Positions 43,811 to 44,580 of a stretch of 64,000 nucleotides of DNA are shown one piece after another (within the stretch, counting starts at the first letter, position 1; each line of letters opens with the position of its first letter). The notes under the pieces are model-generated. The model saw only the letters and a list, made by a program, of their open reading frames with translations, had not been told where the DNA came from and made no database searches. Source of the stretch: Escherichia coli O157:H7 (lineage in GTDB: Bacteria; Pseudomonadota; Gammaproteobacteria; Enterobacterales; Enterobacteriaceae); NCBI RefSeq assembly GCF_013167455.1, contig NZ_CP038328.1; one strand, given 5' to 3'. The position numbers and the translations under genes are program-made.

Positions 43811-44580
43811 AACCTGTTCCTTATTCTGTGAACTTCAGGTGACATTAAAGCTTTACTCCTAATGGAGAAACGACGCAATCCCAACTCAGTCAAACAGGTA
43901 AATATTAGTCCGATTATTAGTAAAGACAATTAATCAATCACTCTCGGTGATCATATGATTTCAACTGTAATTATAAGAAAATAATGTACTGATTCCCCGC
44001 ATTAAACAAGTGGTTAATATATGCAAAACATTTTATTAACATTAAGTTGATTGTTGCCTTTCTTTGTATTTAATTAGTTTGTTGTGCGGTAAGTGTCTGT
44101 TTAAAAATAGCTTATCTGGTATTGCATGAAAGTGATTATTTATAGCAGATGATTATTTACGGTGAGTTATTTTAACTGTGCGCAACATCCCATTTCGATT
44201 ATTCCTGTTTCATTTTTGCTTGCTAGCGTAGCGAAAAACTTTTTAACAGATTGAAATACACCCAAAACAAAAGTATGACTTATACATTTATGTTAAGTAA
44301 TTGAGTGTTTTGTGTGATCTGCATCACACATTATTGAAAATCGCAGCCCCCCTCCGTTGTATGTGCGTGTAGTGACGAGTACAGTTGCGTCGATTTAGGA
44401 AAAATCTTAGATAAGTGTAAAGACCCCCTTCTATTTGTAAGGACTTATTAAACCAAAAAGGTGGCTCTGCTTATTGCAGCTTATCGCAACTATTCTAATG
44501 CTAATTATTTTTTACCGGGGCTTCCCGGCGACATCACGGGGTGCGGTGAAACCGCATAAAAATAAAGTTGGTTATTCTGG
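43811..44580. promoter_or_regulatory. flhDC upstream regulatory region (AT-rich, ~770 bp, no IS insertion)
   Basis: Long AT-rich intergenic region upstream of the flagellar master operon; no transposase ORF or IS terminal repeats seen. Confidence 0.5.

Follow-up and report, generated by a model that had tools for sequence, protein, structure and literature searches.

The region upstream of flhDC in the DNA analyzed here, a stretch of 64,000 nucleotides from Escherichia coli O157:H7 (hereafter the window), is almost certainly the native, uninterrupted uspC-flhD intergenic region that controls flhDC in this organism. The original prediction described an AT-rich region of ~770 bp upstream of flhDC which is free of IS insertions. 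Both parts were borne out, the first by the ORFs, the annotation of O157:H7 strain Sakai and a GC content of 35.3%, the second by sequence identity, alignments, copy number and scans for IS ends. An IS-free flhDC region in this organism is correct, already known and ordinary. The window carries the standard wild-type flhDC control region of an O157:H7 strain, as expected of a natural isolate, and in this respect the result matters little.

The gene order in the window is otsB-otsA (41119-43375, plus strand), uspC (minus strand), a gap and then flhD, flhC, motA, motB and cheA (plus strand). This order, otsBA-uspC / flhDC-motAB-cheAW, agrees with the Sakai annotation, and the divergent arrangement of uspC and flhD followed by flhC, motA and motB is that expected of a native flhDC region. 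The downstream ORFs from motA to flhE also agree in length with those annotated in Sakai. The interval 43811-44580 is the gap between two ORFs and extends from the uspC start to a GTG at 44581, the old start of a FlhD of 119 aa. In the RefSeq annotation of the identical Sakai sequence the flhD start codon is the ATG at 44590 instead of this GTG. Thus, the true intergenic region comprises 779 bp and ends at 44589 (Table 1). Its GC content is 35.3-35.4%, whereas the whole window has 50.2%; a GC content as low as that of 43811-44580 was found in only 0.7% of 770-bp windows. A scan at the Rfam gathering threshold gave no match inside the intergenic interval.

Table 1. Features of the flhDC region and IS copies in the window (positions relative to the flhDC transcription start carry a sign).
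Feature	Coordinates	Strand	Remarks
IS30, truncated	11345-12353	+	transposase NF033563 at 3.4e-77; 'IS30 partial' in Sakai; colinearity with Sakai ends at 12353
IS629/IS1203, complete, 1,310 bp	12359-13668	-	both 25-nt terminal repeats; OrfA and OrfB match IS3-family transposase
IS629/IS1203, partial	20047-21103	+	one terminal repeat; OrfB of 229 aa, truncated; in Sakai 'IS1203 Family: IS3 partial'
uspC (universal stress protein C)	43382-43810	-	ORF of 142 aa, divergent left neighbour; 98% identity to K-12 UspC; annotated uspC in Sakai
uspC-flhD intergenic regulatory region	43811-44589		779 bp, uninterrupted, divergent
TTAG, IS5 target	44074-44077		-318 to -315, 516 bp before ATG; unoccupied; no indel versus other strains
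CTAG, IS5 target	44223-44226		-169 to -166; unoccupied
CATTTATG, 8-bp site duplicated around IS1H of MG1655	44285-44292		-107 to -100; single empty copy
TTAA, main IS5 hotspot	44293-44296		-99 to -96; unoccupied, followed by native sequence
CRP site TGTGATCTGCATCACA	44313-44328	+	centred at -71.5
flhDC sigma-70 promoter	44357-44385	+	-35 TTGTAT 44357-44362, 17-nt spacer, -10 TACAGT 44380-44385
flhDC transcription start and leader	44392-44589	+	+1 = 44392; 198 nt; GGA at +7 to +9 and +50 to +52
AsflhD antisense RNA homologue (predicted)	44392-44611	-	transferred from MG1655 b4839 through alignment
flhD	44590-44940	+	116 aa, intact; 115/116 identity to K-12; Q77L
flhC	44943-45521	+	192 aa, intact; 192/192 identity to K-12 FlhC

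The 770 bp of the interval are 100% identical in O157:H7 Sakai (NC_002695.2, 2580263-2581041) and EDL933, with the same flanking genes in the same orientation, and also in TW14359, EC4115 and many other O157:H7 genomes. At an identity of at least 80% the interval was found in 5,421 of 5,426 complete E. coli genomes. Beyond the interval, differences from Sakai comprise an additional IS629 accompanied by a loss of 1,028 bp in prophage Sp13, 7 SNPs and one gap of 1 nt; from 13668 to 64000 there are 6 mismatches in 50,333 bp.

Promoter, transcription start, leader, AsflhD region and flanking genes of K-12 MG1655 are as in the window. MG1655 alone has IS1H (1978503-1979270) together with an 8-bp duplication at -107 to -100, both of which the window lacks. 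The alignment of the two sequences is colinear with 18 substitutions in 840 aligned window bases, and its one gap corresponds to the 768 bp of IS1H plus the 8-bp duplication of CATTTATG. Alignment and script agree that MG1655 reads CATTTATG-IS1 (768 bp)-CATTTATG where the window has one CATTTATG. A second alignment included nine genomes, namely the window, MG1655 (with the IS1 removed), O157:H- 493/89, FORC_069, M10, AR_0104, FDAARGOS_1283, NMBU_W05E18 and 2017-02-2CC; the seven comparison strains other than MG1655 were chosen across the identity range of the matches. In this set the interval showed indels of 1 nt only, and the intergenic length is 779 bp in the window versus 778-781 bp in the seven other strains. 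Alignment to reference flhD upstream regions, which had been proposed as a check, consequently gave a colinear interval with no large indel.

The same region has been described as an IS hotspot, and for K-12 this was confirmed by the IS1H of MG1655 and by the published positions of IS5 and other IS elements. IS insertions upstream of flhDC increase expression and motility (PMC5100188; PMC11237407). According to PMC5100188, the target of IS5 is a TTAA that lies 96-99 bp ahead of the flhD transcription start. Other insertions were reported at -166, -303 and -315, and activating ones out to -476 (PMC5100188; PMC11237407; PMC5493358); the positions of Barker et al. 2004 and of Fahrner & Berg 2015 are those relayed by PMC5100188. 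The IS5 at -315 (PMC5100188) and the IS5 located 516 bp upstream of the start codon (PMC11237407) occupy the same site. For the IS5 at -166 (PMC5100188) a CTAG is listed as IS5 site (PMC5493358). These published hotspot positions map exactly onto TTAA, CTAG and TTAG of the window. The most distal activating insertion, -476, corresponds to 43916, and the known hot zone therefore extends roughly from 43916 to 44296.

All of these sites are empty in the window. A test for target-site duplications found CATTTATG, TTAA, CTAG and TTAG each in a single copy at the documented sites. The IS5-activated flhDC alleles of MC1000 and of BW25113 derivatives use the same TTAA target, which is unoccupied here. 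The uspC-IS30-flhDC marker of wastewater-adapted E. coli (PMC5007776) has the same intergenic region as IS target in natural isolates; the window has no IS30 in the interval, and its sole IS30 is the truncated copy in the prophage (11345-12353). IS1, IS5, IS3, IS2 or IS30 between about -96 and -476, the hallmark of an IS-activated allele, was not present. The window also differs from IS-inactivated flhDC alleles of the Shigella or non-motile biofilm type, as its leader is colinear and flhD and flhC are full length. Thus, the window is usable as a clean reference for empty IS target sites.

An occupied TTAA site was encountered in an unexpected record. HM037272.1, deposited as Bacillus thuringiensis plasmid pBMB0558, contains at 2093-3120 E. 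coli uspC and 490 bp of the interval with 97.6% identity. The match stops at the TTAA hotspot, with the IS5 end GGAAGGTGCGAACAAG directly adjoining and the polylinker-like sequence GAATTCGAGCTCGGTACCCGGG behind it. TTAA followed by this IS5 end also occurs in 66 complete genomes. Apparently, the deposited HM037272.1 sequence is chimeric and includes DNA of a cloning host.

For the location of the flhDC promoter we used the established leader length of 198 nt. The sequence TGTGATCTGCATCACA corresponds to the established CRP-binding site (Soutourina et al. 1999, as cited in PMC5493358); its half-sites match the consensus TGTGA-N6-TCACA. With TTAA at -99 to -96 (PMC5100188) only one placement is obtained, which puts +1 at 44392, 198 nt before the ATG. 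This start is further supported by the RefSeq AsflhD, which ends at the equivalent base of MG1655. Judged from sequence, the region would combine a sigma-70 promoter, a CRP site at -71.5 and a leader of 198 nt, and the promoter elements are the same in MG1655. A promoter and terminator consensus scan of 43700-44700 gave one match on the minus strand (44198-44169), fewer than the 3.3 expected from shuffled sequence, and missed the real flhD promoter because this promoter is non-consensus.

Most of the nine strains have an identical core promoter. Isolated substitutions at -10, -22 and -26 were found in two others, and the window has the majority base at all three positions. Compared to MG1655 the leader carries four SNPs (+36, +37, +54 and +74). 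Three of the four window alleles are common to all sampled strains except M10, and the C at +74 is shared with three strains; M10 and MG1655 share the alternative leader alleles. The last base of the CRP site (44328) is the consensus-matching A in eight of the nine strains including the window, and G only in MG1655. The outlier at this position is the reference laboratory strain MG1655 and not O157:H7. Salmonella records align only to 44310-44580 with 71% identity. Conservation beyond E. coli consequently starts at the CRP site, and the AT-rich part further upstream is more fluid.

Two differences were observed in the non-motile, sorbitol-fermenting O157:H- strain 493/89. It has an extra C in the C-run after window position 44346, between the CRP site and the -35 element. 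Its annotated flhC comprises 567 nt versus 579 nt, and this shorter gene fits the published 12-bp flhC deletion.

In the proposed mechanism, flhDC would be transcribed from 44392 by a weak sigma-70 promoter (-35 TTGTAT, -10 TACAGT). The CRP site at -71.5 probably serves for activation, and the AT-rich upstream stretch of roughly 500 bp would be the site of action of repressors such as H-NS, LrhA, OmpR, RcsAB and Fur, in line with the literature in which CRP activates and H-NS, LrhA, OmpR, RcsAB, Fur, IHF, MatA and YjjQ repress via the upstream region (PMC5493358). The 198-nt leader is a likely target of CsrA and of small RNAs; CsrA acts on the flhDC 5' leader (PMC9387321). In K-12 laboratory strains, flhDC expression is raised by IS1 or IS5 insertions that lie between about -96 and -476. 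This activation would be explained by disruption of the repressive upstream architecture. Every documented target site is empty in the window, and the ordinary control by multiple inputs that is typical of wild E. coli is therefore expected for flhDC.

The absence of an IS had been taken to argue for native motility regulation in this strain. Native expression of flhDC is the best-supported reading; it follows the literature and is consistent with a species-typical promoter and leader and with intact flhD and flhC genes. The argument from IS absence is correct but carries little weight, since an interval free of IS elements is the default of the species.

The nine-strain alignment contains only two positions private to the window, 43911 and 44819. 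Position 43911 (-481) is C in the window and T in all eight other strains including O157:H- 493/89. The change of A to T at 44819 results in the FlhD substitution Q77L as compared with K-12 and with the FlhD common in E. coli (WP_001295647.1), which is also the FlhD protein of O157:H- 493/89. A 51-nt probe centred on 44819 T, which reports exact matches only given the 28-nt word of megablast, matched 294 of 5,426 complete genomes; the 40 listed are all O157:H7-like, either by name or by a similar genome size.

These two changes could act as modifiers of flhDC output. Together with EHEC regulators such as GrlA, Hha, FmrA and others they may have retuned this output relative to K-12, an explanation which we consider unlikely. 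Both changes are private to O157:H7 among the nine strains and missing even from O157:H- 493/89, the distribution of L77 points to the O157:H7 lineage, and O157:H7 is documented to have its own flhDC regulators (PMC9387321). However, position -481 lies at the distal edge of the zone in which IS insertions still affect flhDC (-476), O157:H7 is by definition flagellated (H7), and neither core promoter nor CRP site nor leader departs from what is typical of the species. That Q77L and -481 T>C are adaptations by which the O157:H7 lineage retuned its flagellar master switch would likewise be an improbable interpretation of the two substitutions.

In order to obtain a base rate of interruption, 5,426 complete E. 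coli genomes of all lineages were pooled. The interval was divided into two 400-bp queries so that even an insert of the size of IS1 breaks a match. The left half was found at 5,462 places in 5,417 genomes, corresponding to 45 split genomes, with 5,370 genomes carrying at least 80% in one place. The values obtained with the right half were 5,561 places, 5,412 genomes and consequently 149 split genomes, and 5,260 genomes carried at least 80% in one place. About 194 of 5,426 genomes are thus interrupted and about 96% are IS-free. The resulting base rate of ~3.6% among complete E. coli genomes is a useful by-product of this analysis.

The interrupted genomes were further resolved by junction probes with 27 nt on each side, for which a full match means the exact junction only. 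The MG1655-type IS1 junction occurred in 68 genomes and IS5 at the TTAA of -99 to -96 in 66 genomes. These two canonical K-12 alleles account for about 134 of the roughly 194 interrupted genomes, and the full-length junction matches listed are all from K-12-sized genomes of 4.55-4.65 Mb, for example ER1709 and GB2005. Interruption outside the two canonical alleles amounts to roughly 60 of 5,426 genomes, about 1%. Obviously, IS activation of flhDC is largely a phenomenon of laboratory strains, as most interrupted genomes carry K-12 laboratory alleles. The IS-free state is the overwhelming default of the species and expected in an O157:H7 isolate. Consequently, the absence of an IS carries almost no information about a wild strain. 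A further IS1A-family element upstream of flhD was observed in E. coli HS-01 from human stool in Indonesia (4.51 Mb; 1788-2485 of locus L003), with the break at the MG1655 IS1 site. The genome of HS-01 is small, and this strain is possibly K-12-like and not of wild origin.

These frequencies also bear on the reading that the IS-free sequence is the majority state of a mixed culture, from which a motile, IS-bearing subpopulation collapsed out of the assembly. A consensus assembly represents the majority sequence, in which minority IS-bearing subpopulations are invisible, and K-12 stocks with mixed populations, with and without an IS upstream of flhDC, are known (PMC11237407). Still, this reading is very improbable. 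Interruption is rare among the 5,426 complete genomes and mostly due to two K-12-type alleles, the full-length junction matches listed come exclusively from K-12-sized genomes, and a literature search pairing IS629 with flhDC found no relevant paper that ties this element to the flhDC promoter. The native, uninterrupted region is retained as the preferred explanation, and nothing in the sequence speaks against it.

The interval contains neither terminal repeats of IS1, IS5 or IS629 nor, judged from ORFs, copy number and plasmid matches, a transposase fragment. The end sequences of IS1 and IS5 were taken from MG1655 and HM037272.1. In the whole window no IS1 or IS5 terminal repeat was detected with up to 3 mismatches, and no intact copy of IS1, IS5 or IS30 is present. 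The elements that insert upstream of flhDC are mainly IS1 and IS5, joined by IS30 in wastewater strains (PMC5007776). The IS629 ends of the window are located only at 12359, 13668 and 20047, outside the interval. ORFs of at least 40 aa are absent from the interval, with the exception of one 40-aa chance ORF which overlaps the uspC start.

The copy number of the interval was likewise that of unique sequence. In complete E. coli genomes the number of places per genome has a median of 1 and a maximum of 2, and on plasmids 2 places in 5,539 were found; a multicopy IS fragment of at least 28 nt in the interval would have given many places. A distant-mode blastn search against 72,556 plasmid records yielded 13 records that match the interval, seven from E. 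coli with the whole interval (several of them megabase-sized), five from Salmonella and the one chimeric Bacillus record. None of the plasmid matches listed falls under a transposase annotation. A repeat search found only a 12-nt inverted pair (43541-43552 and 44158-44169). It was considered as a pair of IS termini and judged to be due to chance, with one arm lying within uspC.

An all but negligible alternative is that regulation is already altered by a concealed relic of an IS, by a scar left on excision or by a deletion that an IS caused. K-12 biofilm isolates are known in which an IS mediated a deletion from the flhD promoter (PMC5100188), and an IS629-associated loss of 1,028 bp occurred elsewhere in the window. 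However, the interval is colinear with eight strains of differing lineage and its indels do not exceed 1 nt, the sites CATTTATG and TTAA each occur once, both halves are single-copy per genome, just 13 plasmid records match in distant mode, IS ends are missing with the 12-nt pair as sole inverted repeat, and neither a duplicated target site nor multicopy-element sequence was found when tested for.

The IS-free interval had further been set against heavy IS activity elsewhere in the window. Three IS copies are indeed present (a partial IS30, a complete IS629 and a partial IS629; Table 1), at a distance of 22-32 kb from the flhDC interval. The contrast drawn between the two is weak, as all three reside in a P2-like prophage, which is Sp13 in the Sakai annotation and extends roughly over 10.7-31.8 kb of the window, 12-33 kb from flhD. 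In four O157:H7 genomes 62% of the IS629 copies were located in prophages or prophage-like elements and 28% in the backbone (PMC3271280). Given the confinement of the IS copies to the prophage and this preference of IS629, there is no real tension with an IS-free flhDC promoter.

The complete IS629 contains the ALIL frameshift pseudoknot. It is missing from Sakai at the same site, which reflects fairly recent activity, and stands in for 1,028 bp of Sakai sequence. Coordinate mapping from Sakai assigns the 1,028 bp lost at 12354-13668 to the end of the IS30, ECs_2646 and the start of the tail-sheath gene. The arrangement suggests that IS629 inserted into prophage Sp13 and that neighbouring sequence was deleted. 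Among the best-matching complete genomes listed neither the IS30/IS629 nor the IS629/sheath junction was contiguous, and two-piece matches only were obtained.

Outside the flhDC interval, matches at Rfam gathering score were observed for C4 antisense RNA and isrK in the P2-like prophage (26045-26242, minus strand), for the small RNA C0465 between cheW and tar (49971-50046, minus strand) and for ES036 (CssrF) near the left end of the window (114-155, minus strand).
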